DNA from: Planctomycetota bacterium
GTDB taxonomy: Bacteria > Planctomycetota > JAZDJP01
Assembly: GCA_043803805.1 (NCBI GenBank)
Contig: JAZDJP010000040.1
Coordinates: 1 to 23,350 of the forward strand
Direction of reading: 5' to 3'
Length of the DNA: 23,350 nucleotides
The notes below the pieces were generated by a model. That model made no database searches. It was given only the letters and a program-made list of their open reading frames with translations, and was not told the origin of the DNA. Positions 6,902 to 23,350 of the stretch are shown here, piece after piece. The translations under genes were made by a program, and so were the position numbers. Numbering within the stretch: the stretch's first letter is position 1; each line of letters starts with the position of its first letter.

Positions 6902-6921
6902 GAATCCGGATGATTTCCGAA

Positions 6922-7953: not shown

Positions 7954-8095
7954 GAGTCTGGAGAGTCCGCGAGTCGGCGAGTCAGGGAGTCTACCCCCCT
8001 CCCCCCTGAACTTTCCACCTCTCTGACTCCGTCGGTTTTTCTGCGAGTCACAGGCCACAGGTCCGGGACTCGGTGACTCGAAGACTCACCGACTA
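7954..8095. repeat. Inverted pair of 8-bp-unit arrays: GAGTC x5 (7954,7963,7971,7979,7987) and GACTC x3 plus a degenerate unit (8067,8075,8083,8091), separated by about 75 bp that contains a CCCCCCTCCCCCCTGAACT...TTTTCTGCGAGTC motif
   Basis: Read directly from the sequence. It sits between the stop of the methyltransferase-PDZ gene (8100) and the ThyA-like start (7905), so it occupies the ThyA-like promoter region. Confidence 0.85.
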
Positions 8096-8099
8096 CTTC

Positions 8100-9131
8100 T
8101 TACCAAAGCGTCACCTCGATTTTCACCTTCCGTTTTCCGCGCACCATCACGAGGCGCAGTTTCTTCTCCTCGCCGACGGATTTTCGCAAGCGATGGATGT
8201 CGAGTTCCCCGACGGGACAATCGCTCACCGCGGCCAGGCGGTCCTTCGCCTTGACGCCGGCCTTCTCGGCGGGCGTGCCCGGAAGCACCTCCCCCACCGG
8301 CCAGGCGTCGCCCGTGCGCGTGATGTTCAGTCCGATCCCCAAAAGGGCCACCCCCAGACGCATGACATCGCAGGCCGCGTTCACCTCCACCCAGATGCCC
8401 TTCCCGGCCGGGACGGCCGTGATGACGGCCAGAGCCCCCGGCTCGCCGCGGTCCGAGTGATACGCGTATTCAAACGAGGCGATCCGGAAATCCGCCGTGT
8501 GGAGCGCACCCAGCCACTCCCGCGTCGCGGTCGAATCCTTCAGGGACGCGGCCGAAACGAGGATGCCGTCCTCCGCGAGCGCGCCCCGGACCCGCCGGAA
8601 CGCCTCCGCCCGCTCCCGGACGCATTCCACCGCGCGGGTGTCCACCGCCGCGTCGAAGGGCCCCCTGGGAAGCGCCTTCGTGAAATCCCCCGTCACGAAC
8701 TCGATATTTTTAATCTTGAGCGCCCCGGCCATCCGCCGCGCCTCGGCGACGGCGTTCCGGGCGAAATCCATCCCCGTGACGCGGGCCTTCTTGTTTCGCG
8801 CGGCGTACCACGTCGCGAGGTATCCGGTGGAACTCCCGAGGTCGAGGATGCGTTTCCTCTCACCGATCGCCTCCGCCGCCGCTTCCCCGGCCGCGCGGAC
8901 GGCGTCCGTGTGCATGGAGAGCACCACGGGCGCTATTTTCGGGTCGGCGGTGAAATTGGAAAACCCCTGCCAGTCCGCGAGATTGGATCCCTCGCGCTCG
9001 AGAGGCTGGAGAAGGGTCTGCACCTCGCGGGCGACCCGGGGGCCGAGTTCCTTCGCGGCCCAGTAGAAATAATCCACCGAGGTGAACCGCCGGAGGCCGA
9101 AGCGGACGAGATGCTTCTCCAGGGACGTCAT
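8100..9131 (-). CDS. Class I SAM-dependent methyltransferase fused to a C-terminal PDZ domain
   Basis: Methyltransferase motifs I (ILDLGSSTGYLATWYA), II (VTGMDFARNA) and III (IEFVTGDF) are present. The C-terminal 90 aa match the PDZ pattern (GIGLNITRTGDAWPVGEVLPGTPAEKAGVKAKDRLAAV...LRLVMVRGKRKVKIEV). Confidence 0.8.
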   Translation of the reverse strand: MTSLEKHLVRFGLRRFTSVDYFYWAAKELGPRVAREVQTLLQPLEREGSNLADWQGFSNFTADPKIAPVVLSMHTDAVRAAGEAAAEAIGERKRILDLGSSTGYLATWYAARNKKARVTGMDFARNAVAEARRMAGALKIKNIEFVTGDFTKALPRGPFDAAVDTRAVECVRERAEAFRRVRGALAEDGILVSAASLKDSTATREWLGALHTADFRIASFEYAYHSDRGEPGALAVITAVPAGKGIWVEVNAACDVMRLGVALLGIGLNITRTGDAWPVGEVLPGTPAEKAGVKAKDRLAAVSDCPVGELDIHRLRKSVGEEKKLRLVMVRGKRKVKIEVTLW

Positions 9132-9325
9132 GGCCGTTCATGGTAAGCGGCGGCCCCCGCCGGCGCAATCCGAATTCCGCCGGATCCCCGCGCCGCCGGG
9201 TTCCACCTCTACCGCGTGAGGCAGGCCGCCAAGCACAAAATCACCGCGACCGGTTTCTTTTTATATATCCATCGGCGCGGGCCTGGAAACCCTTGAGCCC
9301 GGCGGCAGGGGAACGGGGGGCCGAC

Positions 9326-12300
9326 CTAGTCCGTGCGCTCGACCTTCGCGGTGGCCGTCCTTACCAGCGCCGCCTTGCCGGAACCGTCCCAGAACCGCAG
9401 CGCGGCAACCACCTCGGCGCCCACCTTCAGGTACGGGCCATCGCGCGTGACGAGCTCGACAACGAGTTTTTTACCGGCATGGACGGTGATGGTATCCCGG
9501 GCCTTGGGGTCCTCTCCCGGAAAGAACTTGCCATTGTTTCCCACGGTCGCGACGTGCATGTTCCAGGAGAGATTGACGTCCTTCTTGCCGGCGGAGTTGT
9601 CCAACTCCACGGCCACCTTGGCGTGGAGCGGCGAGCCGCCGTCGGGGCCGGGATTGTCCACGACGGGCATCCAGTCGCGCCAGAAGTAGACGTCCCCGGT
9701 CTTAATCTTGCAGTCGCCAACGGCCTCCCCGCGCTGGAGCACCACCTCGGCCCTGCCCGGCTCGACGATCTCGATTTCCACGGGGCCGGTGGTGACCTTG
9801 CCGTTCCAGAATGCGGTCCCCGCTTGCGGAACGTCGCAAGCCGCGGTCATGACGTACTTGCCGGGCGGCAGGGACTTCGACAAGATGTTTTTCCCCTCCT
9901 CGCCGACGTTCCAGAACTCACACATCAACAACGCCTGCGCTTTTTCACCGGCCTGTAAATTCACATCGGGGCGGAGAGGCATCGGCTTCGGCGGCGGGTG
10001 AATGCTCGCCGTGTACGTTTTCTTGCTTTCTTGCGCGACAAGACGCACTTTCCAACTCCATGTGTCAAGCACCCAACCCGGCAGTTTTATGGGCTGATTT
10101 CCCGCGTTCATGAGACAAGCATCCATCACAACCGGCTTCCCGGCCTCGAACTTCGCCTGCTTGGCCGACAGCCCCGCTTGGAGGCCGTTCACCGCCGAGC
10201 CCCAGGAAATGTTTTCAGCCTCCTTTCCACCCTTTTCTATCCGAATCGTCCAGACGTTTGAACTGACTTTTCCGCGAATCTGACGGATTCTATATTCGCC
10301 GGGTTTTTCGAATGAAAAAAAAGTTGAAAGAGGGATAACAAGAGTTTGTTCCTGCCCCGACGCCAGGGAGTAGCGAGTGTTGACGATATGGTTGGCGATA
10401 CGGCCCTTCACGGCTTTCCCATCAGGACCGATGACTTCCAACAACGCCGCGTTAAATGCTCCGAGGTAGAGATTTTCCTGAACATCTTCTTGGTCCATTT
10501 GCTCGAAATGGCCGACGTCCTGTATGGCTTCCTTGCCGCCGTTTCTTACGCCAAGTGTGACTTTGATGACCTCGTTCGGTGCGTATTCCGTCTTTTCCGA
10601 CCAGACGCCGCATTGAAGCCCCGCGTTCAGCCCGACCGACGCCTGGCCCCAGGAGATGTTGTCCTTCGGCACCGTCGATTTCGCGCCGCTTTTATCCCTG
10701 ACCTCGATCCTGATTGAACCGGTCTCCACCGCACCCGTCCATGCGGGAACGAGGTTCTGGGGCACGACCCTGACGTGTTTTCGCGTGTCGCCTCCCCATT
10801 GATATTTCGCTTTGACAAGGTACTCTCCTGCCGGCAAGGCATCGACATCAATCTTGGCGCCCGCAGGGGAGTTCCCGATTTTCCAGAATCCGCCGACCTC
10901 GCCAAAAACGATGGTCTCGATTTTCCGATCCTTCTTTTCGAATTCGCCAAGAGAAATATCTTCCCCTCCCGCCGACTTCGTCCAGTAGTAGATTTCTTTC
11001 CTTTCCCCGGATTCAAACGAGAGCGCGAACCGGTCCGGATGGTCCCAAGCATCCAGCCGGAGCGCTTTTCCCCCCGTATTTTCAAAATGAATAGCGAAAT
11101 TCATGGATTCGCCGGCCCTGAATACGTTTTGTCCTGCGGTTGCGATCCCCGCCTGCAGGCCGTTGACGGGCTGGCCCCAAGAAATGTTTTCAGCCTCCTT
11201 TCCACCCTTGGTCTGAATTTCAACCGCTGGTGAGCCGGCCTCGCCTATCCAGACTCCTTCCTTGCGGAGTTTTTCCAAGTACGCAACCGCCTCCGCCTTA
11301 TTGGCCTCGGTGTTCTCAACAAGGGAGTCCAGCGTCAGGGCGTACCGGAATCGCACCGCGCGGGCCCTTGCCTCCGGCGCGGCGCCGAAGAATTCCTTGA
11401 GAGAGCCCGACGAAAGCGCCGCGGTTTCCCCCGGCGCGATGATTTTGCGCTTGCCGTCGTAGATGCCGGCGTCGAGCACCGCGAGTTCTCCAGTTTTGTA
11501 GCTGAGCCCCTGACGTACGACCGCCCCCTTCTCGTCCACGAGTTCCCAGCCGGAGGAACCCCGATAGGTGCAGAGCGTCACGGGTTTGTCACCCTCGTTT
11601 CTGACAAATGCCCCGGCGCGCAATCCGTCTCGGTCTTTCGTCAACCGGACGCCAACAGACAGGCCGTTGACCGGCTGGCCCCAGGAAATGCCGTCGTTTA
11701 CGGGTGAATCCGTAGGGGCGGGTTTCAAACCCGCCCCTACATTGTCGGTTTTTTTCGTGACGTCCTCGCCCGCCCTGCACCCCGCCACCACCACCGCCAT
11801 TGCGAGAAACACCATTCCTGTGAATCCCAGCATCCAGGTATTCATCCGCGTCACAAGACGCCTCCTTTCGTCAAGAATTCCTTTCACACGCTCCTCAAGA
11901 TTCCACCGGGGATGCACGAGGCCCACCGCCGCCGGTGTGCGGTGGAAGATGCTCGTCTTCTCCGCGAGATCCAAGAGCATTTTGGCGTAACCCGGCGCGT
12001 TCCCCCGCCGCAATACATAATTGTCGCACACCTCCTCGCGGGCGCGGGCGAGTTCGCCGTTTGCCTTCCAGACAAACGGATGCCACCAGAACACGACTTC
12101 CGCGATGCGCTGAAGAAGTCCCACCAGATGATCCCGCTGAAGAACGTGGGCGCATTCGTGGACGAGAATATCGCGAAGTTCCACCGGACCGAGAAGTCCC
12201 GCCACCGGCGTCGGAAGCAAAATCATCGGCCGCGTGATGCCGAAACAGATCGGCCCCGTGATCTGCCCCGACATGCCGATCGGAGGAAGCGCGCGGACGC

Positions 12301-12880
12301 CGAGCGCATTTTTCACATCCGCCAGGACGGGCCCCATCTCGTCGTCATCCAGCGGGATGGCGCTTGTCCGGAGCGCCGTCTGGACTCCAAAACCATGAAT
12401 CAGACGAACCAGCATGACAAGAACTCCCCCCGCCCAGACGAGAAAAACGCCGCACACCGCGGCCCGAATCCGGTCCGCTCGGGAAAGCGGCGGCGACGCG
12501 GGTTTCACGGGCGTCGCCGGCGCGGTCTCCGCGCGGACGACCGGCGCCGGATGCGGGGAGACCGGGATGACGGGTTCCGAAACGGTTTGGATCGACGTCG
12601 CCGGTGCGGCCGCCGCCGGTGGGGAAACAGGTTTCTCCCTCAAGAAAGGAAGAGTAAACGTCGTGATCCCCGCCGCCTCCGCCACCACCGACACCAGCGG
12701 CGCGAGAAGCACCACCGCCAGGGCCGACAGCCACAATCCGTAACGGACGGCCGCCCCCGCCCGGCGGAAAATCCGGGAAAGCATCCAGGCCAGAGCCACC
12801 ACCACCGTGACCTGGATCAACGCATTCATCGCGGCGAGCGCCGCGGCGTCACCAAGATAAAATCGGAGAAGCGTCCTCAT
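9326..12880 (-). CDS. blaR1: BlaR1/MecR1-family M56 peptidase signal transducer (anti-repressor) with a very large C-terminal extracytoplasmic sensor built from about four tandem repeats, each of about 190 aa, carrying an ISWGQPVNGL motif
   Basis: N-terminal TM helices and the zinc-metalloprotease motif VHECAHVLQRDH characteristic of BlaR1; a further TM at about aa 350; the repeats contain DGISWGQPVNGL, ENISWGQPVNGLQAG, DNISWGQASVGLNAG and ENISWGSAVNGLQAG. The gene overlaps the upstream blaI-family gene by 4 nt (ATGA). Confidence 0.85.
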   Translation of the reverse strand: MRTLLRFYLGDAAALAAMNALIQVTVVVALAWMLSRIFRRAGAAVRYGLWLSALAVVLLAPLVSVVAEAAGITTFTLPFLREKPVSPPAAAAPATSIQTVSEPVIPVSPHPAPVVRAETAPATPVKPASPPLSRADRIRAAVCGVFLVWAGGVLVMLVRLIHGFGVQTALRTSAIPLDDDEMGPVLADVKNALGVRALPPIGMSGQITGPICFGITRPMILLPTPVAGLLGPVELRDILVHECAHVLQRDHLVGLLQRIAEVVFWWHPFVWKANGELARAREEVCDNYVLRRGNAPGYAKMLLDLAEKTSIFHRTPAAVGLVHPRWNLEERVKGILDERRRLVTRMNTWMLGFTGMVFLAMAVVVAGCRAGEDVTKKTDNVGAGLKPAPTDSPVNDGISWGQPVNGLSVGVRLTKDRDGLRAGAFVRNEGDKPVTLCTYRGSSGWELVDEKGAVVRQGLSYKTGELAVLDAGIYDGKRKIIAPGETAALSSGSLKEFFGAAPEARARAVRFRYALTLDSLVENTEANKAEAVAYLEKLRKEGVWIGEAGSPAVEIQTKGGKEAENISWGQPVNGLQAGIATAGQNVFRAGESMNFAIHFENTGGKALRLDAWDHPDRFALSFESGERKEIYYWTKSAGGEDISLGEFEKKDRKIETIVFGEVGGFWKIGNSPAGAKIDVDALPAGEYLVKAKYQWGGDTRKHVRVVPQNLVPAWTGAVETGSIRIEVRDKSGAKSTVPKDNISWGQASVGLNAGLQCGVWSEKTEYAPNEVIKVTLGVRNGGKEAIQDVGHFEQMDQEDVQENLYLGAFNAALLEVIGPDGKAVKGRIANHIVNTRYSLASGQEQTLVIPLSTFFSFEKPGEYRIRQIRGKVSSNVWTIRIEKGGKEAENISWGSAVNGLQAGLSAKQAKFEAGKPVVMDACLMNAGNQPIKLPGWVLDTWSWKVRLVAQESKKTYTASIHPPPKPMPLRPDVNLQAGEKAQALLMCEFWNVGEEGKNILSKSLPPGKYVMTAACDVPQAGTAFWNGKVTTGPVEIEIVEPGRAEVVLQRGEAVGDCKIKTGDVYFWRDWMPVVDNPGPDGGSPLHAKVAVELDNSAGKKDVNLSWNMHVATVGNNGKFFPGEDPKARDTITVHAGKKLVVELVTRDGPYLKVGAEVVAALRFWDGSGKAALVRTATAKVERTD
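10183..10234. repeat. Intragenic DNA repeat, copy 1 (52 nt; the last 34 nt are nearly identical to 11175-11208)
   Basis: GGCCGTTCACCGCCGAGCCCCAGGAAATGTTTTCAGCCTCCTTTCCACCCTT matches 11157-11208 with about 6 mismatches, and the 3-prime 34 nt differ at a single position. It encodes the KGGKEAENISWGQ segment of a sensor repeat. Confidence 0.7.
11157..11208. repeat. Intragenic DNA repeat, copy 2 (paired with 10183-10234)
   Basis: See copy 1. Weaker, more diverged copies occur near 10621-10660 and 11671-11700. Confidence 0.7.
11702..11730. repeat. 29-nt perfect palindrome GTAGGGGCGGGTTTCAAACCCGCCCCTAC located in frame inside the blaR1-like ORF, where it encodes the GAGLKPAPT linker segment
   Basis: Exact self-reverse-complement with a 14-bp stem; same family as 5641-5669 (opposite loop orientation) and 6874-6901. 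Confidence 0.8.
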
Positions 12881-13275
12881 GCGCGTTTCCTCCCCTTCTC
12901 GGCCGTGTCAATGAGTTTCCGGATGCGCGTGGTCTCCTCGGAGGTGAGATTCTCCCCGTCCACGAGGGCCGCCACGAGCCCCGACGCGGATCCCGCGAAG
13001 ACGGTCCGCACGAGACGCGACACGATCCCCCCCAAGGCCTGTTTGCGTTCGGTGGCCGCGGAATACACAAAACTGTTCCGCACCGCCCGACGAACCAGCC
13101 ACCCCCGTTCTTCGAGGCGCGTCATGTGAGTGAGGACGGTGTTCCGGGCCACCGGCCGCCGGGCGCGCAGAACATCCCAGACGTCCGCGACCGACGCCTC
13201 CCGGCGTTCCCAGATCACGTTCATGATCTCGAGTTGTCCGGGAGAAAGGGTTTCCGTGGAAGACATTCGGCCCAT
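12877..13275 (-). CDS. blaI: BlaI/MecI/CopY-family (penicillinase repressor) winged-helix transcriptional repressor
   Basis: N-terminus LSPGQLEIMNVIWERREASVADVWDVLRARRPVARNTVLTHMTRLEERGWL has the typical BlaI DNA-binding domain, followed by a C-terminal dimerisation region. SD GGAGG lies 6 nt upstream of ATG 13273-13275, and the stop overlaps the blaR1 start. Confidence 0.85.
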   Translation of the reverse strand: MGRMSSTETLSPGQLEIMNVIWERREASVADVWDVLRARRPVARNTVLTHMTRLEERGWLVRRAVRNSFVYSAATERKQALGGIVSRLVRTVFAGSASGLVAALVDGENLTSEETTRIRKLIDTAEKGRKRA

Positions 13276-13293
13276 GCGAGACCTCCTTCTCAA

Positions 13294-13345
13294 CGATTGT
13301 TGTAGGCATAATACCTACCCGAGTAGGCATTGACAAGAAAAAAAA
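13294..13345 (-). promoter_or_regulatory. Candidate blaI-blaR1 promoter with an overlapping operator
   Basis: The minus-strand read gives -35 TTGTCA, a 17-nt spacer and -10 TATTAT. The spacer contains the dyad GCCTAC-TCGG-GTAGG, and a further GCCTAC follows the -10 hexamer. Confidence 0.5.
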
Positions 13346-13360
13346 CGAAATTATTTTTCG

Positions 13361-13390
13361 GACGGGTGAAAAAAACCGCCCGTCGCCGAG
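13361..13390 (-). terminator. Weak hairpin GACGGG...CCCGTC with a T-rich tract following on the minus strand; possible terminator of the small ORF 13448-13663
   Basis: 6-bp GC stem with a 12-nt loop on the minus strand, followed at some distance by a T8 run; not a canonical intrinsic terminator. Confidence 0.2.
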
Positions 13391-13447
13391 GATCCCGATG
13401 AAATCGTGATGACCGGCCGAAACGCCTGCGCCATCGCCGGACCTCCG

Positions 13448-13663
13448 TCAGATCCCCGGGGCGGTCGGGGTGGTCGGCGCGACCGGGACGGCCGGGACGA
13501 CCGACGGCAGGGACAGGGGCGGAGACGGGGGCAGCGGCAGGGGGGAAATCGCCGGGGGCGGCGTTTCGACCGTTCCCATTTTCCGCCTTAACTTTTCCTC
13601 ATGCTTTCGTTTCTTGGCGATGTCCCGCTGTCGCTTCGCAAACGCATAATTGGGCTTGGCCAT
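13448..13663 (-). CDS. Hypothetical small basic protein (MAKPNYAFAKRQRDIAKKRKHEEKLRRK...) with a Pro-rich C-terminal tail
   Basis: AGGATGG SD-like sequence 6 nt upstream of the ATG. The N-terminal 30 aa look like a real basic peptide. The C-terminal half lies in a GC-rich low-complexity tract, so the call is uncertain. Confidence 0.3.
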   Translation of the reverse strand: MAKPNYAFAKRQRDIAKKRKHEEKLRRKMGTVETPPPAISPLPLPPSPPLSLPSVVPAVPVAPTTPTAPGI

Positions 13664-13995
13664 GTTCCATCCTCATGAAGGGAAGGGTTGATCGCGGAAC
13701 CGGAGCAGGTCCCCCTTCGCCATCCCGGCACCGGGACCGGAACCCGCCCACCGCCGACAACATCAGTATACGGGACGGGAAGCGCTGGAACAAAGCGAAA
13801 TCCGATCCGCGCCAACGCGGGCGCCCGTCCGCGTTCGTCCCTTTTCCTCCTCCAACACCTTCACGCATCTCCCCAGCCGCCGACAATTCCCGCATCGGGT
13901 TCCCGTTTTCGCCCCTCATTTATCGTGTCAAATCCCGGCCCACTTCGTTAAAATCCCCGGCTGGATGCATTTACACTTAACGGAGGATGGCCTCA

Positions 13996-16563
13996 ATGAA
14001 AAGATTTTACCGGGTGAAGGCGAAGGGGCTCGTTGCTCTGGCGGTACTTTTGGTGTTTTCCGGTAATGGATCCATGGTTGTTTGGGGGGCGGGAGCGGCG
14101 CCGGCGCCGGTCGCGGAAACCGGGCAGACGATTCTTGGCGGAGGCGGCTATTTCCGCGCGTTCGCCATGTGGCGGGATTCGGGAACGGGGATATTGAAGG
14201 GCTTGAAATCCGCGCCGCCATCGGAAGGCTGGATACAGCCCGATTTCGACGATCAAAACTGGTACCGCTCGGCAGGGCCGCTCACGGGCGAGGATGTCTT
14301 TTCCCACGGGGCGAACGAACCCAGGCTCGCCTTCTGCGGTCTTTTGTGCCTGAGGGGTAAATTCAGGGTGGAAAAACCGGGCTCGGTGACGGGGCTCGAT
14401 TTGAGTTTGAAGTTCCGCGGCGGGGCCGTGGTGTACCTCAATGGCAAAGAAGTCGCCCGGGGAGAGATGCCGGACGGCGCAACGGCGCCCGAGGCCCCCG
14501 GCAAGCCTTATTCGGACGAGAATTACACTGCCGGAACGTTGGAGAGAAGCCTCGGCCCGGTTCGCGTTCCTGTCAGTCAACTTCGTCAGGGCGTCAATGT
14601 CCTGGCGATCGAGATTCATGGAAGCGACTTCACCGCGGCGAAATCGGTTGCGTCCGGATCGAAGAAGGCGCGCGAAACGTCGTTGGCCGGTTTGTGCGGG
14701 CTCAAACTTTCGGCCGCCGGCTCGGGCATCGTTCCCAACGTGGATCGGCCTGCCGGGTTCCGGGTTTTCAATATAGATTCCCATCAGGTCTTTACCATAA
14801 TGGAATACGGGGATCCCTGCGAGCCGGTGAAACCCATCCGTCTCGGAGGCGCGAGGAACGGGAGTTATTCCGGAGCGGTCGTGGCATCCTCGACGGCGGC
14901 CATCGACGGACTCAAAGCGGTCGTTTCCGACCTGGCGCAGGCCGGTGGAACCGCGAGGATTCCCGCCGCGAGCGTCGAAATCCGCTACGGAACTCCGGCC
15001 GACCGTGATCATGTGGGCAAGGTAGGCTTGGCCAAGGAGACTTACCGGTGGACGATTCCGCCCTCCTTCTCGGGGCTTGACCGGGAGCCGCCCGGGAGCG
15101 TCGTCCCCGGGGGGTTACCGGTTGACTCGGCGGAGAGGGTGGAACTCGGCCTTCCGGCAAAGCCGACGCCCGGCGCGGTCGTGCCCGTGTGGGTCACGGT
15201 CAACGTGCCCAAGACGATTCCAGCCGGCAAATATGCCGGCAGCCTTACGATTACGGCAACCGGCGCGCCGGAGACGAAAGTCCCCGTGGAAGTGGAGGTG
15301 GTCGAGTGGACGATCCCGGATGTAAAGAAGACCTTCGTCGGCATCTACCAGTCTCCCGAGAGCCTGGCCAGCATGTACAAGGTTCCCCTGTGGTCCGATG
15401 CGCACTGGAAGCTGATGGAGGAATCGTTCAATCTGATGGGGAAGGCGTACAACAATTTGCTGATGCTTCCGTTGCTGGAGAAGAGCCAGACCGGCAATGA
15501 GGAGAGTTTGATCTTCTGGATGAAGCAACCCGACGGATCCTTCACGTTCGACTATGCGAATTTCGACAGGATGCTGGGTCTTGCGACGAGGTACTGCACG
15601 TTGAGGGTTGTCGTCGCCCAGTTGACTCACGGCCCCTACATGGCGGAGTGGGGCACGACCAAACTGAAAAACCCGGAGGGCGCGGAGTCGGTTTTCTCTG
15701 GTATCCGGAGCGTCACGCTGAAGGACGCCTCCGGCAAGCTTTCCTCCATGAGGCTCATGGACTATGGCACCCCGGAGAGCAAGGCCGCGCTCAAGACCCT
15801 GACCGACGGGATCCGGGGCAAGTTGAAAGCCAAGGGGATCGAGGGATCCTTAACCTTCGGCACCAATCAAGATACGGGTATGGACAAGGAAACGGCGGAC
15901 TTCTTCAAGGACATCCAGCCGCAGGTGAAATGGCACTACGCGGCGCACGGCTGCAGGACCATCCCTCTTTATGCGTATGTCGAGTATCTCTATGTGGACA
16001 ATTGGTTGCCAGAATCGTTGGAGAAACGCAGGGACAGGAAAGCTGATCCCGGGACGATCATCGTTATGAGCCAGAGGATTTCGTGCGCGGGACAGCCGAT
16101 TTCGGTCTTCCGCACGATGATGGAGCGCGCCGGCATCCTGGGTGACAACGGCGCCGGTCGCATGGGCATGGACTACTGGAGTTTTCCAAAGGGCCAGGGA
16201 GGCTCGGGCTGGTCGGGGACCTACCTCGGCCGCTGGCCGAACTCCACACCCGGACAGAGGTGTCCGCATGTGGGCGCCATTGCCCTGCCGGGAAAGAACG
16301 GCCCGATTTCTTCTTCCAAGCTTGAAGCGCTACGGGAAGGCGTTCAGGAAAACGAGGCGCTGGTTTTCATGCGTGAGGCGCTGGAAGGCGGCAAGATCAG
16401 CGGAGAATTGGCTGATCGGGTCCGGGCGTTTCAGGAGGCGCGATTCCAGTATTGCCGGATGATTCACGGAAGCGTGGCCGAACCGCGCGCGGCTTGTGAC
16501 GGTGGTCGTTTTGCGCGTTCGATGGCTTTGTACCGCCTCGTTGCGGAGGTGGCCGGCAAGTAA
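13996..16563 (+). CDS. Large secreted putative glycoside hydrolase: signal peptide, an N-terminal galactose-binding-like beta-sandwich, and a central/C-terminal region resembling the DUF4091/GH123-like catalytic domain
   Basis: Signal peptide MKRFYRVKAKGLVALAVLLVFSG (GGAGG lies 9 nt upstream of ATG 13996; the ATG at 13987 has no spacer). EGWIQPDFDDQNWYRSAGP resembles the GH2-type sugar-binding domain. IFWMKQPDGSFTFDYANFDRMLGLA resembles the DUF4091 TIM-barrel region. The family assignment is tentative. Confidence 0.75.
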   Translation: MKRFYRVKAKGLVALAVLLVFSGNGSMVVWGAGAAPAPVAETGQTILGGGGYFRAFAMWRDSGTGILKGLKSAPPSEGWIQPDFDDQNWYRSAGPLTGEDVFSHGANEPRLAFCGLLCLRGKFRVEKPGSVTGLDLSLKFRGGAVVYLNGKEVARGEMPDGATAPEAPGKPYSDENYTAGTLERSLGPVRVPVSQLRQGVNVLAIEIHGSDFTAAKSVASGSKKARETSLAGLCGLKLSAAGSGIVPNVDRPAGFRVFNIDSHQVFTIMEYGDPCEPVKPIRLGGARNGSYSGAVVASSTAAIDGLKAVVSDLAQAGGTARIPAASVEIRYGTPADRDHVGKVGLAKETYRWTIPPSFSGLDREPPGSVVPGGLPVDSAERVELGLPAKPTPGAVVPVWVTVNVPKTIPAGKYAGSLTITATGAPETKVPVEVEVVEWTIPDVKKTFVGIYQSPESLASMYKVPLWSDAHWKLMEESFNLMGKAYNNLLMLPLLEKSQTGNEESLIFWMKQPDGSFTFDYANFDRMLGLATRYCTLRVVVAQLTHGPYMAEWGTTKLKNPEGAESVFSGIRSVTLKDASGKLSSMRLMDYGTPESKAALKTLTDGIRGKLKAKGIEGSLTFGTNQDTGMDKETADFFKDIQPQVKWHYAAHGCRTIPLYAYVEYLYVDNWLPESLEKRRDRKADPGTIIVMSQRISCAGQPISVFRTMMERAGILGDNGAGRMGMDYWSFPKGQGGSGWSGTYLGRWPNSTPGQRCPHVGAIALPGKNGPISSSKLEALREGVQENEALVFMREALEGGKISGELADRVRAFQEARFQYCRMIHGSVAEPRAACDGGRFARSMALYRLVAEVAGK

Positions 16564-16588
16564 AAAATCGTAACGGTATTTATCGCGT

Positions 16589-16617
16589 TTGACAGAGTCT
16601 TTTAAGTGCGGTATGAT
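16589..16617 (+). promoter_or_regulatory. Near-consensus sigma-70 promoter: -35 TTGACA (16589-16594), 17-nt spacer, -10 TATGAT (16612-16617)
   Basis: Read directly from the sequence; lies 60 nt upstream of the start of the first gene of the BNR/GH operon (16679), which has SD AAGGAGG at 16665-16671. Confidence 0.6.
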
Positions 16618-16678
16618 GAATTAGTCACGATGCTGGCGGTCTGGTTGTTCTGGTGGGCGTTATCAAGGAGGCGTCTTT

Positions 16679-18865
16679 ATGGATACGACAGGTCAAGGGC
16701 GGGCTGTTTTGTTTGCCGGGTTGGTGTTTGCCTCTCTTGGAGTTGGCGCCGGAGCGCGCGGGGCCGAGGCGGTTCAGGTCCTCTATGATTTTGAGCCCGG
16801 CGAAAAGAAGCTGAATGGCCCCAAGGCGCAGAAAGGCGAGGCCTCCCATGGGGAGTACGCGCTCTTCGTGGACATGAAGCAGACGGGCGGCGGCCGGATG
16901 GACCAGTATTGCCCGGTAAGCCCCGAGCCCAACCAGATGAAGGCGCTTCCGAGTCTCATGGCCATGCCGCCGAGCAACGACTACCACGATATCATGCAGT
17001 GGTACTACGAACGCTACTGCGCCATTTTGGATGAGTGCGGCGTGGCCAACATGATGGAACAACCGCTCCGGGACTGGTCAGGTTATGACCGTTTGCGATT
17101 CGATGTCTACGCCAAGGAAGCGCCCGTCATTCTGGCCTTGAGCGTCCGCGACGGCACGGGACCCCGGTTTCGCATCGGCTTCACGGGCATGCGATCGGGA
17201 AACGCCATCTTCAACGTTCCCGCGGGAAAATGGGTGACCTGCGAGTTTCCGCTCAAGGAAATGGCCCGCCTGGGAGAGTTGGATCTTCAGAAGGCCCAGG
17301 GATTCTTCCTGCACTTCAACGGCTTCCAGGGAAATACGCCGCTGTATATTGACTACTTCCGGCTGGTGGCCACCGGCGCCGAGAAAAAAACAAAGACCGA
17401 TGTGCTGGCGCCCTCCAATACACTGACGGCCCGTTTGTACAAAGTCGTCAAGACACCTCTCCCCGCGAAGTATCCGGAGAAGCTCAAGCGCGATGTCTCC
17501 CCGGTGGAGAATCTGGGCCCCGTCACGGTAACCGACCACGGCGGCTTCGGCAGGTCGGGCGTCACCTATTGTCAGACCGTGCGCCAGGGCGTGGTGTGCT
17601 ACGACAATCAGCGCATCGCGTTCCTGTCGAAGGACGGCGGCAACAAGACATCCCGCAAGATCAATCCCGACAGCGTCGGCGGAGGAGGCATTTACGCCCA
17701 CGCCTCCTTCGATGGAGGCAGGACGTGGGGCGGAATCACTCCGGACGAGAAGGTGGCCACCAACCTCAACACGTGGTACGATCGTAGCGGGGCCTCGGCG
17801 GATTACGCCACCGGGCAGATTTTCCTCGTGGGCACCGAGAACTGCCAGAGTTACATGGGCGGCTACGACACCTTTTTCCGGTCTCTGGATTTCACCGGAG
17901 AGAAATGGGACATCGGGCGCATCGCCATGATTGACGGCAACATGCAAAAATGCCCATGGTGGTGCCATGTGCTCCGGACGGAGAACGGACGTCTGTGGGC
18001 CTGCTGGTGCGACGGGCGCGTTACCCGCCAGGGAATCGGCTTTCCGCACAAATACTCCGACGACGGCGGCCTGACCTGGCTCCCGGCACGGAACGGGGAT
18101 TCGAAAGAACTCCCCCACCCGTTCTACAAGCCGGACCTCAACGATCTGGACAAGGCCCATGAGAAGGCCCCGGACAAGGTCATTCTTCTGCCCGGAGAAT
18201 TCATCCCCGGCCCGATGATGACGTCGTACAAGGGTTCCCTGGCCTCCGTATCGTACACGGGTACGCAGTGGTCAATACACGACGGCAAGGATTGGGATGT
18301 GACCGTGCACGATATTAAAAACTCCGGGAATTGGAAAAAAATCCCCGCCTTCGGGAAATCGAGGGATTACTCGGAGTGCACCGTAACCTCGGTTCAGGAC
18401 AAACACATCTTTGTCTGCAAGGGAGGCGCTTACCAGTTCAGTTTTCATGAGAAGGATGTTGGCCGCGGCAACACGACCGTGGAAAGCCTTGAGGCAAGAC
18501 AGCAGACCGATCTGGCCGTCGCCCATTGGGACGGAGACGCCGGGGCGTGGACGAGCGACGTATTGGAGACGGAGGGTGTCTGGGAAAGCATTCTGACGGC
18601 CAGCGGCGACGCGGTCTTTTGTTTTTATGTGAAGGTCGAGAAGCGGGACGACACCAAGAAGAAGTGGGTGGTTTATTATCGCCGCTGGGCCGGCGGCAAG
18701 TGGGGTGACGCGGTCAAGCTGGCCGAGGATGCGGTTCGAATCAACCGTCTGGCCGCGGCGCAACGCTGTCCTCCCAGCTACGCCGCGATCCTCTGGGATC
18801 ATCTGGTTCGAAAGGATGAGACCGGGCCGGACGGCATCCGGTTCATGCGGGTGGCGAATAAATGA
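16679..18865 (+). CDS. Secreted protein with an N-terminal CBM-like (CBM11/CIA30-like?) domain of about 220 aa followed by a BNR/Asp-box beta-propeller (sialidase-like fold)
   Basis: Signal peptide with an AGA cleavage-like site; Asp-box motifs SFDGGRTWG and YSDDGGLTWLP; the N-terminal domain runs VQVLYDFEPGE...LYIDYFRLV; the stop overlaps the next gene start (ATGA at 18862). Confidence 0.85.
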   Translation: MDTTGQGRAVLFAGLVFASLGVGAGARGAEAVQVLYDFEPGEKKLNGPKAQKGEASHGEYALFVDMKQTGGGRMDQYCPVSPEPNQMKALPSLMAMPPSNDYHDIMQWYYERYCAILDECGVANMMEQPLRDWSGYDRLRFDVYAKEAPVILALSVRDGTGPRFRIGFTGMRSGNAIFNVPAGKWVTCEFPLKEMARLGELDLQKAQGFFLHFNGFQGNTPLYIDYFRLVATGAEKKTKTDVLAPSNTLTARLYKVVKTPLPAKYPEKLKRDVSPVENLGPVTVTDHGGFGRSGVTYCQTVRQGVVCYDNQRIAFLSKDGGNKTSRKINPDSVGGGGIYAHASFDGGRTWGGITPDEKVATNLNTWYDRSGASADYATGQIFLVGTENCQSYMGGYDTFFRSLDFTGEKWDIGRIAMIDGNMQKCPWWCHVLRTENGRLWACWCDGRVTRQGIGFPHKYSDDGGLTWLPARNGDSKELPHPFYKPDLNDLDKAHEKAPDKVILLPGEFIPGPMMTSYKGSLASVSYTGTQWSIHDGKDWDVTVHDIKNSGNWKKIPAFGKSRDYSECTVTSVQDKHIFVCKGGAYQFSFHEKDVGRGNTTVESLEARQQTDLAVAHWDGDAGAWTSDVLETEGVWESILTASGDAVFCFYVKVEKRDDTKKKWVVYYRRWAGGKWGDAVKLAEDAVRINRLAAAQRCPPSYAAILWDHLVRKDETGPDGIRFMRVANK

Positions 18866-20637
18866 TGACCAAAGGCATTTTGGATCAGGTTTGCGCCGCC
18901 CTGGGCGGGCAATGCGATTTCGCGCGGGCCGATGTTTCGTTCAGTCCGTTTTACTCCGATCTGGGACTGGGTTTCAACGACGCCGTCCCCGGCATCGCGC
19001 AACTTTTTCTGCACTACAACCGCCGCACGACATCCCTGGGTGCGCCTTTTCTGAAGTTGGACGACGCGCTCATCGGTTCCGAGCGTACGCCGGTGAGCGT
19101 GCGGCAGGTGTTCGCGTCCGGACAGGCCGAGTACGCTTTTTGCGGACACAATACCTGGCTGGCGCGGGTGCGGTGCCCGCGGATCGTGGAGTTTTCGTTC
19201 GGCGCTCCGGAGATGATCGAGTTGCGGGTGACGGAAATCGCGAACCAGCGCATCTTCGATGGCTACCTGTCCAATCAGGACAAACGGGATCCCGATGTTG
19301 CCTTTCCCTTTGTCCTGGGGTTGCGGGTGTTGAAAGGCCGGTTGAGCGGCTCGGGAGCGATGGGACATCCGCTACGGTTTTCCCCCGACGCGCAGGGCGA
19401 ACTTCTGATTTGCTTCTCGGCGTCCTGCCTGGAAGTCGGGCACGAGCGCCTCGAGCAGAGGCTGGCGGAGGCCCCGGTGGATTTTGCGGAGGCCGTGGCG
19501 CGTTCCCGCCGCTGGCTGACACAGGCGCTGGGGAATCTGGATTTCAGCCGCGCGCAACCGCGAGAGCGCGCGGTTCTGGCGAAGGCGGCCTGCGCGTTGG
19601 CTTTCAATGCCTGCAGGGCGCCGGGACTGCTGGGCGGACGGGTGTCGCTTTTTCCCAATCGCGGCCGTTACCCCACGCACTACATGTGGGATTCGTGTTT
19701 TCAAAACCTGGCCCTGGAACATATGGATCCGCAACTGGCGCCGGATTCCCTCCTGTTGTTGACCGAGAACCAGCGCGTTGACGGCAAGCTCGGTCATTTC
19801 CTCTGTTCGACCTGGATGCGGCCGCATGAAAGCCAGCCGGCCCTGGTGGGCTGGGCCGCCTTGCGGCTGGTGGAGCAACGTAGCGATCTCAATTTCGCGC
19901 GACGCATCCTGCCGGCCTTGCTGAAAAATAACCGCTGGTGGTTGCAACAGAGGATGACGCGCTTCGGGTTGATCAGTTCCCCCGGTCCGCTCGAAACCGG
20001 TTGGGATGACACGCCGCGGCAGGACCAGGGCGCAATCCTGGCGCTGGACATGAACACCTATGTGCTGCTGCAGATGCGGGCGTGCGCCGTGCTGGCGCGC
20101 CGCCTGGGGGACGAGAACACCGCCGCCGATTGCGAGCGGCAATCCCGGGATTTCGGCCGGCGTCTGGTGGATGTGTTCTACGATCCCGCGGACAACCTGT
20201 TCAAAGACGTCATGCTGTCCACGGGCGAGAGATTGCCTTTGAAAACGCCGGCCTGTTTCATTCCGTTGCTGGCCGACCTTCCGTTGCCGCCGGAACGCAT
20301 TCGGGCGATGATCGAAAACAGCCTGCTCGATCCCAGGCATTTTTTTGGCGCGGTGCCGTTTCCTTCCGTGGCCTATGACGAAGTGGTCTATGAGGCGGAA
20401 ACGTGGTGGCGTGGCCCGACTTGGATTCCGATCGCCTATCTGATGCTGGAGGTTCTGCGCAGACACGGTTTCGATCAGCCGGCGCGGATCGCAGCGAAGC
20501 GGCTTTACGACATGCTGATCGCCGACGGCAATCTGCGGGAGTTGTTCAATTCCCGGACGGGCGAAGGCATGGGCGCCTACGAGCAAGGCTGGACCGCCGC
20601 CATCTGTCTGCGCTTGTACATTGAACTGAACGCATAA
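18862..20637 (+). CDS. Cytoplasmic (alpha/alpha)6-barrel glycoside hydrolase, GH63/GH37-like (clan GH-G: mannosylglycerate/glucosylglycerate hydrolase, trehalase or debranching-enzyme C-terminal-like)
   Basis: PNRGRYPTHYMWDSCF fits the GH37/GH63 G-R-[FY]-x-x-x-Y-x-W-D-[ST]-x-F signature; C-terminal EQGWTAAICL; no signal peptide; translationally coupled to the upstream gene. Confidence 0.8.
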   Translation: MMTKGILDQVCAALGGQCDFARADVSFSPFYSDLGLGFNDAVPGIAQLFLHYNRRTTSLGAPFLKLDDALIGSERTPVSVRQVFASGQAEYAFCGHNTWLARVRCPRIVEFSFGAPEMIELRVTEIANQRIFDGYLSNQDKRDPDVAFPFVLGLRVLKGRLSGSGAMGHPLRFSPDAQGELLICFSASCLEVGHERLEQRLAEAPVDFAEAVARSRRWLTQALGNLDFSRAQPRERAVLAKAACALAFNACRAPGLLGGRVSLFPNRGRYPTHYMWDSCFQNLALEHMDPQLAPDSLLLLTENQRVDGKLGHFLCSTWMRPHESQPALVGWAALRLVEQRSDLNFARRILPALLKNNRWWLQQRMTRFGLISSPGPLETGWDDTPRQDQGAILALDMNTYVLLQMRACAVLARRLGDENTAADCERQSRDFGRRLVDVFYDPADNLFKDVMLSTGERLPLKTPACFIPLLADLPLPPERIRAMIENSLLDPRHFFGAVPFPSVAYDEVVYEAETWWRGPTWIPIAYLMLEVLRRHGFDQPARIAAKRLYDMLIADGNLRELFNSRTGEGMGAYEQGWTAAICLRLYIELNA

Positions 20638-20651
20638 GGAAAGGAGAAGTT

Positions 20652-21923
20652 ATGAGCCAGAAGAAAATGAAGTCCGGTGGAAAACCGATTCGCCTGGGGG
20701 TTGTCGGCGTCGGCCGCGGGCGGTCGTTCGCGCGTGGCGCGGCGACGGCGGGGATGGAACTGGTCGCCCTGTGCGACACGTGGGAGGAAAAACTCAACGA
20801 AGTCGGCCGGGAGCTCGGCGTCACGACTTACACCGATTTCGGCAAGATGCTGGAACACGACCTCGACGCGGTGGTGCTGGCGAATTATTTTCACCAGCAC
20901 GCGCCGCTCGCCATCCAGGCGATGGCGGCGGGGAAGCACGTGATGTCCGAGTGCGCATCCTGCTTCACGCTGGCGGAAGGCGTGGCGCTCATCCGCGCCG
21001 TGGAGAAGTCCAGGAAGATTTACATGATTGCCGAGAATTATCCCTACTCCGCCTACAACCAGGAGATGCGCCGGTTGTACCAGGCGGGAAAGATCGGCGA
21101 GTTCGTCTATGGCGAAGGCGAGTACGTCCATTGCGAGAGCGCGGATGTCTGGGCGTGGCTGGCGCCCGGAATCAAGCATTGGCGCGGCTGGCTCCCCGCG
21201 ACGTACTATTGCACCCACGCATTGGCGCCGCTCATGTTCATTACCGATACGCGGCCCGTCAAGGTCAACAGTTTCATCATGCCCTGTCACCCGGATGATC
21301 CGGTCTTCCGAAGGTTGCCGCGTTTCAGCGACGCCGCTTCGATGATCGTCTGCCGGATGGACAACGGCGCATGGGTGAAGCTCCTGCAGGTTTATTTGCG
21401 CGGACACGGTTCCTGGGTTCGCGTCCACGGATCGCGCGGCCACATGGAAAACATGCGGTTCGGCGACCGGAATTGGCTGCGCCTGAACCGCGAGCAGTTC
21501 CATGAGAAAAAGACGGGGCCGGTCGAGCAGATCTATCGTCCGGAATTCCCGGCCGTTCACCAAAAGATGGCGAAAAAGGCGGGGCATGGCGGCGGCGATT
21601 ACTTCACCAATTTCCATTTCGCCGAGGCCATCCGGAAAAACGAGCCGCCCTACCTGGACGTCTATCGCGGCGTGGCGATGTCCATCATCGGGCCGCTCGG
21701 ATATCGTGCGGCGCTTCAGGGCGGCGTGACGCTGGAGGTGCCCGACTTCCGGAAAGAGGCGGCCCGCAAGAAATACGAAAACGACCATTGGGCGCCCGAT
21801 CCGTTCAACCGGAAGAAGGGCGATCCCTGGCCGAGCATCACGGGGAAAATCACACCGTCGAAGCGGGCGCTGGCGTATGCGCGGAACGTCTGGCGGAATG
21901 AGAACAAATACTTCGGAGAATAA
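20652..21923 (+). CDS. Gfo/Idh/MocA-family NAD(P)-binding oxidoreductase
   Basis: N-terminal Rossmann motif IRLGVVGVGRGRSF and the conserved region AVVLANYFHQHAPLAIQAMAAGKHVMSE; SD AAGGAG 5 nt upstream. Confidence 0.85.
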   Translation: MSQKKMKSGGKPIRLGVVGVGRGRSFARGAATAGMELVALCDTWEEKLNEVGRELGVTTYTDFGKMLEHDLDAVVLANYFHQHAPLAIQAMAAGKHVMSECASCFTLAEGVALIRAVEKSRKIYMIAENYPYSAYNQEMRRLYQAGKIGEFVYGEGEYVHCESADVWAWLAPGIKHWRGWLPATYYCTHALAPLMFITDTRPVKVNSFIMPCHPDDPVFRRLPRFSDAASMIVCRMDNGAWVKLLQVYLRGHGSWVRVHGSRGHMENMRFGDRNWLRLNREQFHEKKTGPVEQIYRPEFPAVHQKMAKKAGHGGGDYFTNFHFAEAIRKNEPPYLDVYRGVAMSIIGPLGYRAALQGGVTLEVPDFRKEAARKKYENDHWAPDPFNRKKGDPWPSITGKITPSKRALAYARNVWRNENKYFGE

Positions 21924-21932
21924 GGAGGAGCC

Positions 21933-23350
21933 ATGTTTTATAAAATGCTGGGTGGTGTGGTTGTTATTGCCGGGCTTTTGATGGTCGCGACGGGCGGAGC
22001 GGTTGCCGCCGAGCCGGTGAAGGTGCTTTACGGTTTTGAGAACGGCAACGATCTGAAGGGCGTGGTGGTTCTCAAAGACCTTGTCGAGAACCACGCCACG
22101 GAAGGGAAACAATCCCTCATGTTCGGTAACGGATACCCCGAGTCCTGGCGTTATATCAAGAGTTATGCGGAAGGCAAACCAACCGGCCTCATGGCGCAAC
22201 CGCCTGTGAAAGGCGCCTACGAAGACGTGCTCGATTGGTTCTACCAGCGCTACGGGTGTGTCCTGGATGACGCGTGCCGCAACCGGGATCGCCAGCTCGA
22301 CTGGAGCAGTTATAGCAGTCTTCGTTTCGATATTTTCAGCGAAAAGGCCCCGGCCGTGCTCGCCACCCGTATATTCGATTCCAACGGCCCGAAGATCCGG
22401 GCTCACTATCTGGGGGTACGAAGCGGGTTGGGGGTTTTCAAGATTCCCCAGGACAAGGAGGTGACGTGCGAATTTCCGATCGTCGAGATGGCGGCGGCCG
22501 CGGAAATGGATCTGTCCAGGATGATGGGTTTCGTTCTCCGGATCAACGGCTTTGAGGGGGAGGCTCTTCTTTATGTGGACAATATCCGCCTGGTGATGAA
22601 GGATGCTGCCGCCGGCGACGCCAAATTCCCGATCATCAAGATGGAAGGGGATGTCAAACCCTACGCGCGGCCGGTCATCTACAATCCGGTCAAGCGAAAC
22701 GCGGAGAAGATGACACCGGTGCGGGGGAAGGTGGAGAAGGTGGGGCCGGTCACCGTTTTCACGGGGAATACCGTTTGGAATGCGTCGGACACGGCGTTCG
22801 GAGGATCGGGAGTGACCTATGCCCAGAGTTTGCGACGGGGATGCGTCGCCTGGGACGACAATCGCCTGTTGGTATTGGTGGGCGCGAACGGTTTGACGGC
22901 GGCGGCGAGTTTTGACGGCGGGAAGACGTGGGGCGGCATCACGCCGGGCGAAAAGGAGCAGACCAAACTGCCGTCCTGGGGTGTGCGGGGTTCCGGCGCC
23001 GCGGACGGCACAGGGGATGCGTACATCATCGGAACGCAGAATTGCTCTTCCTACCATGAAGGGTATGACATTGTGTTCCGGCGTCTGGCGTTCGTCGGAG
23101 AGGGATGGGCGGAGGAGAGGATGTCGCTCATCAGCCAGCATCTCCGGAAATGCCCGTGCGAATCCCGCGCCTGGCGGCTGCCCAATGGGCGGATATGGAC
23201 GGTTTATACCGATGGCTGGGGCGGGTGCGTCGCGAATTTCAGCGACGACGACGGTTACACCTGGGTGCCGTGCAAGGATGCGTCCAAGCCGGTTCCGAGG
23301 CCGTTCTACGAGCCGAATCTCGAAGACTTGAAAAAGCCGGCGGAAGAACA
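21933..23350 (+). CDS. Paralog of 16679-18865: secreted CBM-like N-terminal domain plus BNR/Asp-box beta-propeller protein; 3-prime partial, running off the window end
   Basis: Not listed in the ORF track because no stop falls within the window. SD AGGAGG at 21924-21929 and ATG at 21933. Signal peptide MFYKMLGGVVVIAGLLMVATGGAVAA. Colinear motifs with the paralog: VKVLYGFENG/VQVLYDFEPG, LDWFYQRYGCVLDDAC/MQWYYERYCAILDECG, SFDGGKTWGGITPGEKE/SFDGGRTWGGITPDEKV, FSDDDGYTWVP/YSDDGGLTWLP, RPFYEPNLEDL/HPFYKPDLNDL. Confidence 0.8.
   Translation, partial: MFYKMLGGVVVIAGLLMVATGGAVAAEPVKVLYGFENGNDLKGVVVLKDLVENHATEGKQSLMFGNGYPESWRYIKSYAEGKPTGLMAQPPVKGAYEDVLDWFYQRYGCVLDDACRNRDRQLDWSSYSSLRFDIFSEKAPAVLATRIFDSNGPKIRAHYLGVRSGLGVFKIPQDKEVTCEFPIVEMAAAAEMDLSRMMGFVLRINGFEGEALLYVDNIRLVMKDAAAGDAKFPIIKMEGDVKPYARPVIYNPVKRNAEKMTPVRGKVEKVGPVTVFTGNTVWNASDTAFGGSGVTYAQSLRRGCVAWDDNRLLVLVGANGLTAAASFDGGKTWGGITPGEKEQTKLPSWGVRGSGAADGTGDAYIIGTQNCSSYHEGYDIVFRRLAFVGEGWAEERMSLISQHLRKCPCESRAWRLPNGRIWTVYTDGWGGCVANFSDDDGYTWVPCKDASKPVPRPFYEPNLEDLKKPAEE

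Follow-up and report, generated by a model that had tools for sequence, protein, structure and literature searches.

Background

Many of the enzymes with which Planctomycetota and related phyla break down complex polysaccharides of algae and microbes are still unassigned. Here we investigate a gene cluster at positions 13996–23350 of the Planctomycetota contig JAZDJP010000040.1, in which two paralogous secreted proteins, A and B, each join a carbohydrate-binding module (CBM)-like domain to an Asp-box beta-propeller. Several described systems resemble parts of these proteins. The secreted sialidases of glycoside hydrolase (GH) family 33 contain a six-bladed Asp-box propeller, and lectin-like or CBM-like N-terminal domains are common in them. 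In Asp-box (BNR) propellers generally, repeated S-x-D-x-G-x-T-W hairpins fall between blade strands 3 and 4. Seven-bladed propellers that act at uronic acids are found in the L-Rha-alpha-1,4-GlcA lyase of polysaccharide lyase (PL) family 42 (7esk), in GH145 (5mum), in PL25 and in the PL24 ulvan lyases (5uam). The CBM-like domain has counterparts in CBM11 of C. thermocellum Lic26A-Cel5E (1v0a), in CIA30 and in the CBM-like domain of the GH50 agarases (4bq4), where the fusion is to a TIM barrel.

The other proteins of the cluster also have described relatives. The beta-N-acetylgalactosaminidases of GH123 (BvGH123, CpNga123 and NgaP) consist of an N-terminal beta-sandwich and a DUF4091 domain with a barrel, and a DE motif is present in 94% of 734 DUF4091 sequences (PMC11087588). 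GH63 enzymes such as YgjK and the mannosylglycerate hydrolase-like TTHA0978, and the GH37 trehalases, have an (alpha/alpha)6 domain with an acid Asp and a base Glu. The GH109 enzymes NagA and AmGH109A are NAD+-dependent alpha-N-acetylgalactosaminidases built from a Rossmann part and a GH109 C-terminal domain; the part of PMC10755693 that cites Teze et al. 2020 gives the roles of the catalytic His in their GGHGG loop and of a general-base Tyr.

The stretch analysed, referred to as the window, is a complete contig (23,350 bp) from the metagenome-assembled genome (MAG) of a Planctomycetota bacterium. The product of gene A is identical to the NCBI record MFH1022606.1, "MAG: sialidase family protein", and a first-pass annotation of the window had proposed that the pair might represent a novel sialidase-like GH family. 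Are A and B sialidases, as the public label implies? Or do they cut, or only bind, a polysaccharide of another kind? Here we compare the cluster with its closest described relatives and with related loci in other genomes.

Results and Discussion

Organization of the cluster

Four genes lie close together on the + strand. Gene A (16679–18865; 728 amino acids) encodes the first of the CBM-like and propeller proteins. It is followed by gene 2 (18862–20637; 591 amino acids), for a cytoplasmic (alpha/alpha)6 hydrolase of the GH63/MGH1-like kind, and gene 3 (20652–21923; 423 amino acids), for a cytoplasmic protein of the Gfo/Idh/MocA fold that is a candidate GH109-like NAD+-dependent glycosidase. 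Gene B (21933–23350) is the B-type paralogue, of which the first 472 amino acids are present before the contig ends. The stop codon of gene A overlaps the start codon of gene 2 as ATGA (18862–18865). Genes 2 and 3 are separated by 14 nt that contain GGAAAGGAG, and genes 3 and B by 9 nt that contain AAGGAGGAG. The overlap and the Shine-Dalgarno sequences are as the first-pass annotation had described them, but one gap, at 9 nt, is slightly below its range of 10–15 nt. None of the three junctions has a terminator-like site.

The Shine-Dalgarno sequence of gene A, AAGGAGG (16665–16671, + strand), is 7 nt 5' of its ATG. Further upstream on the same strand, at 16589–16617, a σ70-like promoter match is found (TTGACA, a 17-nt spacer and TATGAT), the same promoter that had been proposed at first reading. 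It agrees with the consensus at 11 of 12 positions and lies 62 nt 5' of the gene A ATG. No other site of the window comes within a single mismatch of the consensus, and chance alone would give 0.02 such sites. The packed junctions, the lone promoter match and the lack of terminators argue for co-transcription of the four genes, and hence for their co-regulation.

On inspection, signal-peptide-like N-termini, hydrophobic after a basic residue, are present in A (approximately residues 1–29), in B (approximately residues 1–26) and in the DUF4091/GH123-like protein encoded upstream, and are absent from the products of genes 2 and 3. The division into secreted outer and cytoplasmic inner genes is thus as first proposed, and a compact glycan-processing cluster is supported. 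The region 13996–23350 is very probably one co-regulated cluster of carbohydrate-active enzymes (CAZymes). A cluster of this type is in itself ordinary.

The paralogues A and B

A and B are colinear, with 38% identity over 505 aligned positions (E 3e-99), which confirms that they are diverged paralogues. The N-terminal domain of A (16766–17383, + strand; residues ~30–235) is a CBM11/CIA30-like beta-sandwich, similar to CBM11 in both fold and sequence, and the tentative label of the first-pass annotation therefore stands. The two motifs quoted for it there, V-x-V-L-Y-x-F-E and L-Y-[IV]-D-x-[FI]-R-L-V, are the conserved ends of the domain, and the conserved residues of the domain in A include F38, E39, D132, W133, S134, D142, D158, T187, D225 and R228. 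The domain may bind carbohydrate. It differs from CBM11 in having extra loops (approximately residues 60–125) and in being fused to a propeller rather than a TIM barrel.

The remainder of A (17501–18862, + strand; residues ~275–728) is an Asp-box beta-propeller, as had been recognized, and probably has seven blades. Two of its Asp-boxes, both on the + strand, are canonical: SFDGGRTW (17705–17728; residues 343–350) and SDDGGLTW (18056–18079; residues 460–467). Degenerate G-x-x-W copies are present at residues 403–410, 533–539, 617–624 and 669–675, and all of the copies, canonical and degenerate, are conserved family-wide, which places the proteins in the Asp-box (BNR) superfamily. The visible part of B contains the CBM11-like domain and then the first propeller blades. 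An AlphaFold model of A, made with 17 homologues, is confident, with a predicted local confidence (pLDDT) of 84.5 and a predicted template-modelling score (pTM) of 0.86. A pTM as high as this, for a protein of two domains, suggests that one domain is held in a fixed position against the other.

In scans of the Pfam and NCBIfam libraries, A and B match no family of their own, and in the literature on DUF4091, BNR proteins, Planctomycetes and seven-bladed lyases no paper on a CBM11-propeller family was found. The pair belongs, as had been suspected, to an uncharacterised family.

Comparison with the sialidases

The similarity of A and B to the GH33 sialidases is in the Asp-box propeller, the secretion, the N-terminal CBM-like domain and a weak profile similarity. 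The family of A and B is unlike GH33 in the features that define the sialidase fold and active site. Its propeller fits seven-bladed propellers best, not the six-bladed GH33 propeller. R-[IVL]-P, the core of the FRIP motif, was not found in A, and no Arg triad is conserved family-wide; R438 is the only propeller Arg conserved in at least 90% of the 74–86 full-length members. No Glu of the propeller reaches that level, even within a close clade of 18 members, and the GH33 set of nucleophile Tyr, partner Glu and acid/base Asp was not found in the family.

A and B give only sub-threshold matches to the BNR repeat profile PF02012 and neither reaches Pfam BNR_2. Weak matches to BNR_2 are seen in 30 of 69 relatives, the best at 2e-8, and these are probably the reason for the NCBI name 'sialidase family protein'. 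Profile matches to sialidases of the PDB are mostly restricted to Asp-box stretches, and there is no full-length sequence match to GH33. The genomic context also differs from that of sialidases, consisting of polysaccharide lyases, DUF4091 proteins and sulfatases and not of sialic-acid catabolism, so that the neighbours point to acidic polysaccharides and away from the sialylated substrate that had been considered.

Could A and B still be true exo-sialidases, or GH33-type hydrolases of nonulosonic or Kdo acids? In favour are the canonical Asp-boxes, the weak BNR_2 matches, the position of NanA as first Foldseek match (E 4e-9) and one neighbouring gene: at L011 (loci other than the window and family members are denoted here by L and P numbers), a family member lies near a gene for a 564-amino-acid protein (5011–6705, - strand) in which a DHDPS-family segment is joined to a full BNR_2 domain (5.5e-22). 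This unusual fusion is the sole sialic-acid-flavoured neighbour seen; the DHDPS family includes N-acetylneuraminate lyase. Set against the blade number, the Arg triad and the Tyr-Glu pair, all three of which fail to match, these points leave a sialidase activity very improbable, and we reject the GH33 assignment. The "sialidase family protein" label in public records is probably misleading. Of the novel sialidase-like GH family proposed in the first-pass annotation, the lack of characterisation is borne out and the likeness to sialidases is not supported.

The seven-bladed enzymes of PL42, GH145, PL24 and PL25 have the better-fitting blade number. Their significant sequence similarity to A and B is limited to one Asp-box region (E 0.025), and unlike A and B they have no CBM11-like domain.

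Conserved residues of the propeller and a candidate functional site

Among the full-length members, conservation within the propeller reaches 90% only at Asp-box residues, Trp, Gly, two Cys and the one Arg. The two Cys, C389 and C425, are invariant in the family. The residue before the second of these (K424-C425, 17948–17953) is Lys in 18 of 18 close-clade members and His in 87% of 56 distant members, where it usually sits in the motif D-x-D-x-R-H-C-P. The close clade in addition conserves Arg at 312, 369, 401, 414, 438, 668 and 669, Tyr at 297, 308, 392 and 650, and Asp at 309, 397 and 707.

By propeller topology, the Cys pair is placed in a B-C loop and a D-A loop of blades 2–3, on the face opposite the Asp-boxes. 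So placed, the two residues are probably disulfide-bonded and tie together two loops of the functional face. K/H424, beside the invariant Cys pair and together with the conserved Arg and Tyr, looks like a candidate functional site for an anionic sugar; the several conserved Arg of the close clade make anion binding possible, and Lys or His at 424 would be compatible with the base of a beta-elimination. For a hydrolase with two carboxylates, this set of residues is a poorer fit than for recognition, and possibly beta-elimination, of an anionic sugar, uronate-type or sulfated.

A itself departs from its clade at residue 303 (17585–17587), which is Gln; Arg is found there in 94% of the clade of A and in B and the orthologues. 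Q303 may be a change of specificity, or simple drift.

The conserved genomic partners

Related loci contain both types of propeller protein. A-type proteins are 53–79% identical to A and 35–39% to B, and B-type proteins are 45–62% identical to B and 35–40% to A. The two types occur together in the window, in L001, in L006 and L008 of a single MAG and in a 32.9-kb contig that encodes P0003 and P0011. They are old paralogues with a conserved pairing.

The upstream gene of the window, at 13996–16563 on the + strand, encodes a secreted DUF4091/GH123-like protein of ~855 amino acids. An alternative ATG is present at 13987, but it is directly abutted by the GGAGG, which has normal spacing from 13996, and the protein that would start at 13987 is absent from the public collection; 13996, the start used in the first-pass annotation, is therefore the likely one. 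DUF4091/GH123-like genes are found beside propeller genes in the window, L001 (5223–7814 and 12239–14965), L002 (532–2445), L003 (7278–9974) and L006 (2599–5277 and 7728–10043), and L017 also has a DUF4091-type neighbour. This recurrence makes the upstream gene a conserved partner of the propeller family and bears out the earlier suggestion that it belongs to the locus.

The upstream protein has the architecture of GH123. It matches PF13320 (3e-20) and BvGH123 (5l7v; 7e-15, or 7e-32 with a profile), and resembles GH123 in its DUF4091 domain, in the beta-sandwich at the N-terminus and in the beginning of the barrel. Unlike GH123, it has an extra N-terminal domain of ~270 amino acids. The position of the GH123 Asp-Glu dyad, "MDERP" in 5l7v, reads QDTG in the window protein in an alignment that is weak over this segment (3 bits). 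The same position reads D-[TGHMR] in seven cluster-associated homologues, and IDEP in the unrelated DUF4091-type neighbour at L017. The cluster-associated proteins fall into two subtypes: subtype a, in the window and in one copy each at L001 and L006, reads QD[TG]G, and subtype b, in L002, L003 and the other copies at L001 and L006, reads GD[HMR][RH]P. Provisionally, the cluster-associated DUF4091 proteins lack the Glu of the dyad. If this holds, they cannot use the known substrate-assisted mechanism of GH123.

The recurrent unit therefore consists of the two DUF4091 subtypes, the A-type and the B-type protein, often with a regulator of the GntR or LacI type and with PcRGLX (PL26-like) genes, the latter in L001 and L002. 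More distant members of the propeller family have other neighbours. They adjoin a fusion of CE15 glucuronoyl-esterase and PL14 in L004, L012, L013 and L014 and heparinase II/III-like genes in L017 and L018; PL8, a sulfatase and a 3-keto-disaccharide hydrolase are present in L019, and a sulfatase in L016. The gene neighbourhood is related to carbohydrates throughout, and these neighbours hint at the degradation of acidic polysaccharides.

Extent of the family, and binding or catalysis

In an exhaustive profile search, 1214 cluster representatives passed E<=1e-3 and 139 passed E<=1e-30; the majority of members are 650–750 amino acids long and keep both domains. The genome matches are all MAGs, of Planctomycetota (Phycisphaerae and Pirellulales), Fibrobacterota and Lentisphaerae. 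Some members carry added modules (CBM6, CBM9, PKD/fn3/He_PIG or type IX secretion system (T9SS) tails), additions that are enzyme-like, as they are seen in secreted enzymes. In three others, P0028, P0059 and P0068, a single polypeptide contains an extracytoplasmic function (ECF) sigma factor, a transmembrane helix and the CBM11-like domain with its propeller. These three look like one-component glycan sensors built from the CBM-propeller module.

The sigma factor fusions bring up a second explanation, that A and B are non-catalytic glycan-binding or sensor modules, which capture polysaccharide for the DUF4091 enzymes or report its presence. Conservation is indeed strongest in the CBM-like domain and in the structural motifs of the propeller, no acid/base pair is family-wide, and possible actual enzymes always adjoin the family. 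Against this, the invariant Cys pair and the R-H/K motif, both retained in the secreted members, are missing from P0059 and P0068, which suggests that the motif serves something beyond binding that the sensors do not need. The fusions to CBM6 and CBM9 are typical of enzymes, the DUF4091 partners themselves lack the acid/base Glu of GH123, and tandem paralogues in L009 have no recognisable enzyme beside them. A purely binding or sensing role for A and B is a minority possibility, and a catalytic role is marginally favoured.

The L009 locus is in a Fibrobacterota MAG. Four large open reading frames (ORFs) at 6–12562 and in its neighbourhood give three strong and one weak partial tblastn match to A; these tandem paralogues are followed by several T9SS-tailed proteins without a recognisable catalytic domain, and no DUF4091 gene is present.

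The family, at ~140 clusters at E<=1e-30, is a candidate new CAZyme family, and no entry dedicated to it was found in Pfam or CAZy. If the propellers are catalytic, they would constitute a new glycoside hydrolase or lyase family, and would also provide a function for a DUF4091 branch that is unable to use the GH123 mechanism. None of this overturns current ideas. The family is a reasonable candidate rather than a surprise, and a well-defined target for enzymology.

The cytoplasmic genes 2 and 3

The first-pass annotation had predicted a GH63/GH37-like hydrolase at 18862–20637, and a GH domain is present there, so that the annotation is not refuted on this point. Gene 2 matches PF22422 (MGH1-like/GH63) at 4e-49, PF03200 (GH63 C-terminal) at 7e-14 and PF01204 (trehalase) at 1e-10, and its PGAP name is 'trehalase family glycosidase'. 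In alignments to TTHA0978 and YgjK, both catalytic carboxylates of the (alpha/alpha)6 domain are conserved: the acid Asp is in ETGWDD, which aligns with ESGMDN of TTHA0978, and the base Glu is in LRELFN, which aligns with FREYYD and with IQENYN of YgjK. Gene 2 is predicted to encode a GH63-type alpha-glycosidase. It is unlike the described equivalogs of this group in scoring far under their NCBIfam cut-offs (77 bits against 550 for glucosylglycerate hydrolase and 61 against 625 for YgjK), and its N-terminal 270 amino acids have no family match in the library scans.

The product of gene 3 has the Gfo/Idh/MocA fold (PF01408, 1e-13) and had been assigned a step of intracellular oxidation. Its closest solved relatives are instead GH109 glycosidases. 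The best PDB matches are AmGH109A (6t2b, 4e-23) and NagA (2ixa, 8e-17), and the next, to oxidoreductases, are at ~1e-9. The alignments to 6t2b and 2ixa cover both the Rossmann and the C-terminal parts. PF21252 (Glyco_hydro_109_C) is in the precomputed annotation of gene 3 and was not returned by the local Pfam scan. AGHGGGDY (residues 310–317) aligns with GHGG/GHGGMD of 6t2b and 2ixa, and GEGEYVH (154–160) with GEAAYIH. Both motifs are kept in close homologues, GHGGGDY (311–317) in 115 of 120 and GEGEYVH in 104 of 120. Gene 3 has, by these alignments, the His loop and the Tyr whose roles in GH109 are given in that part of PMC10755693.

Gene 3 is therefore a probable candidate for a cytoplasmic, redox-assisted NAD+-dependent glycosidase, and not for the oxidation of a released sugar. 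It is unlike NagA and AmGH109A in its low identity to them and in having no secretion signal; to our knowledge, the characterised GH109 enzymes are exported. At E<=1e-20 the clade of gene 3 runs to at least 3564 proteins, whose only annotations are "oxidoreductase" and "predicted dehydrogenase", and the GH109-like rereading would be a correction of annotation for thousands of homologues. Members are 60–70% identical across Planctomycetota, Armatimonadota, Chloroflexi, Latescibacteria and others, in varied sugar-catabolic contexts. At L024, two homologues of gene 3 flank an acetyltransferase.

Among the propeller-family loci, GH63 and GH109-like genes are found between the paralogues in this contig only, and the four-gene arrangement of the window is not the conserved unit. 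Is the gene order then the result of chance, with genes 2 and 3 an unrelated cytoplasmic catabolic pair that has been inserted into a secreted module and acts on another substrate? The absence of both genes from all other propeller-family loci, and the high identity of gene 3 homologues across phyla in varied contexts, speak for such an insertion. The arrangement within the window speaks for co-transcription: all four genes are on one strand, with an ATGA overlap and with intervals of 9–14 nt that carry Shine-Dalgarno sequences, and the one consensus promoter is upstream of A, with nothing like a terminator after it at the three junctions. Chance juxtaposition is, on balance, improbable.

A proposed mechanism

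We propose that the cluster degrades a polysaccharide in two compartments. The secreted DUF4091/GH123-like protein, A and B would attach to and cleave a complex polysaccharide, probably an acidic one, outside the cytoplasm. In A and in B, a CBM11-like beta-sandwich would be rigidly joined to a probably seven-bladed Asp-box propeller. The two would represent an uncharacterised family of carbohydrate-active enzymes, in which the CBM-like domain may extend the substrate-binding surface, by analogy with the GH50 agarases. The working site would be on the propeller face opposite the Asp-boxes, at approximately blades 2–3, where C389 and C425 bracket a Lys in the close clade or a His in the rest, and conserved Arg and Tyr would complete the site with K/H424. 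The released oligosaccharides would be imported, by a transporter of which none is visible before the contig end, and then cleaved in the cytoplasm by the GH63-like alpha-glucosidase-type enzyme and the GH109-like NAD+-dependent enzyme. Of this scheme, the gene structure, folds, homologies, conserved residues and synteny are observed, and the catalysis by the propellers, the position of the site, the acidic nature of the substrate, the import and the transcription as an operon are proposed. Taken whole, a polysaccharide-degradation cluster with catalytic propellers is the best explanation that we can offer, with an even prospect of being right.

Several observations weigh against this explanation. 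The most-conserved residues of the propeller are structural (Asp-box residues, Trp, Gly and Cys), and no acid/base pair conserved across the whole family was found in the alignment of full-length members. The fusions to ECF sigma factors point to ligand sensing over catalysis, at least in P0028, P0059 and P0068. No solved or characterised relative of A or B was found in the literature or in PDB profile searches, which gave matches to Asp-boxes and to CBM11 only. The number of blades, and the assignment of the conserved residues to a single face, were deduced from secondary structure and propeller topology. The hint of an acidic substrate stems mostly from the distant clade, and no lyase, sulfatase or transporter is seen in the window. 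The promoter at 16589–16617 is a putative one, a match to the consensus in a phylum for which little is known about promoters.

More speculatively, the A-type and B-type proteins and the two DUF4091 subtypes without the dyad Glu might form an unrecognised four-component extracellular system of Planctomycetota and allied phyla. The CBM11-propeller would in that event be a new CAZy family, possibly of lyases with a Lys or His base held beside a disulfide, acting on a uronate-containing or sulfated polysaccharide without known degrading enzymes, and the sigma-fused relatives would be its sensors. We regard this extension as tentative, and less likely than not.

Other features of the contig

Positions 1–13900 contain genes with no relation to the carbohydrate locus, among them those for a beta-carbonic anhydrase, NfeD and flotillin, an ankyrin-repeat protein, a thymidylate-synthase-like protein and BlaR1/M56. 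No family matched in an Rfam scan of the window, and the 5' untranslated region consequently has no riboswitch or leader of a known kind. The repeated DNA of the region only mirrors the paralogy of A and B.

The program listing of the window contains numerous spurious ORFs on both strands, because its G+C content is high (~60%). Two on the - strand, of 404 amino acids (19372–20586) and 854 amino acids (20577–23141), run antisense to the GH63, GH109 and B genes. Since the + strand genes all have strong homologues, these antisense ORFs are presumably artefacts of high G+C.

The G+C content falls to 0.53–0.54 at 6001–7000 and 10001–11000, compared with ~0.60–0.67 elsewhere in the window. The first dip coincides with the ankyrin-repeat gene (5666–6832, - strand; 388 amino acids) and the second is inside the BlaR1/M56 gene (1184 amino acids). 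Both might be foreign DNA.

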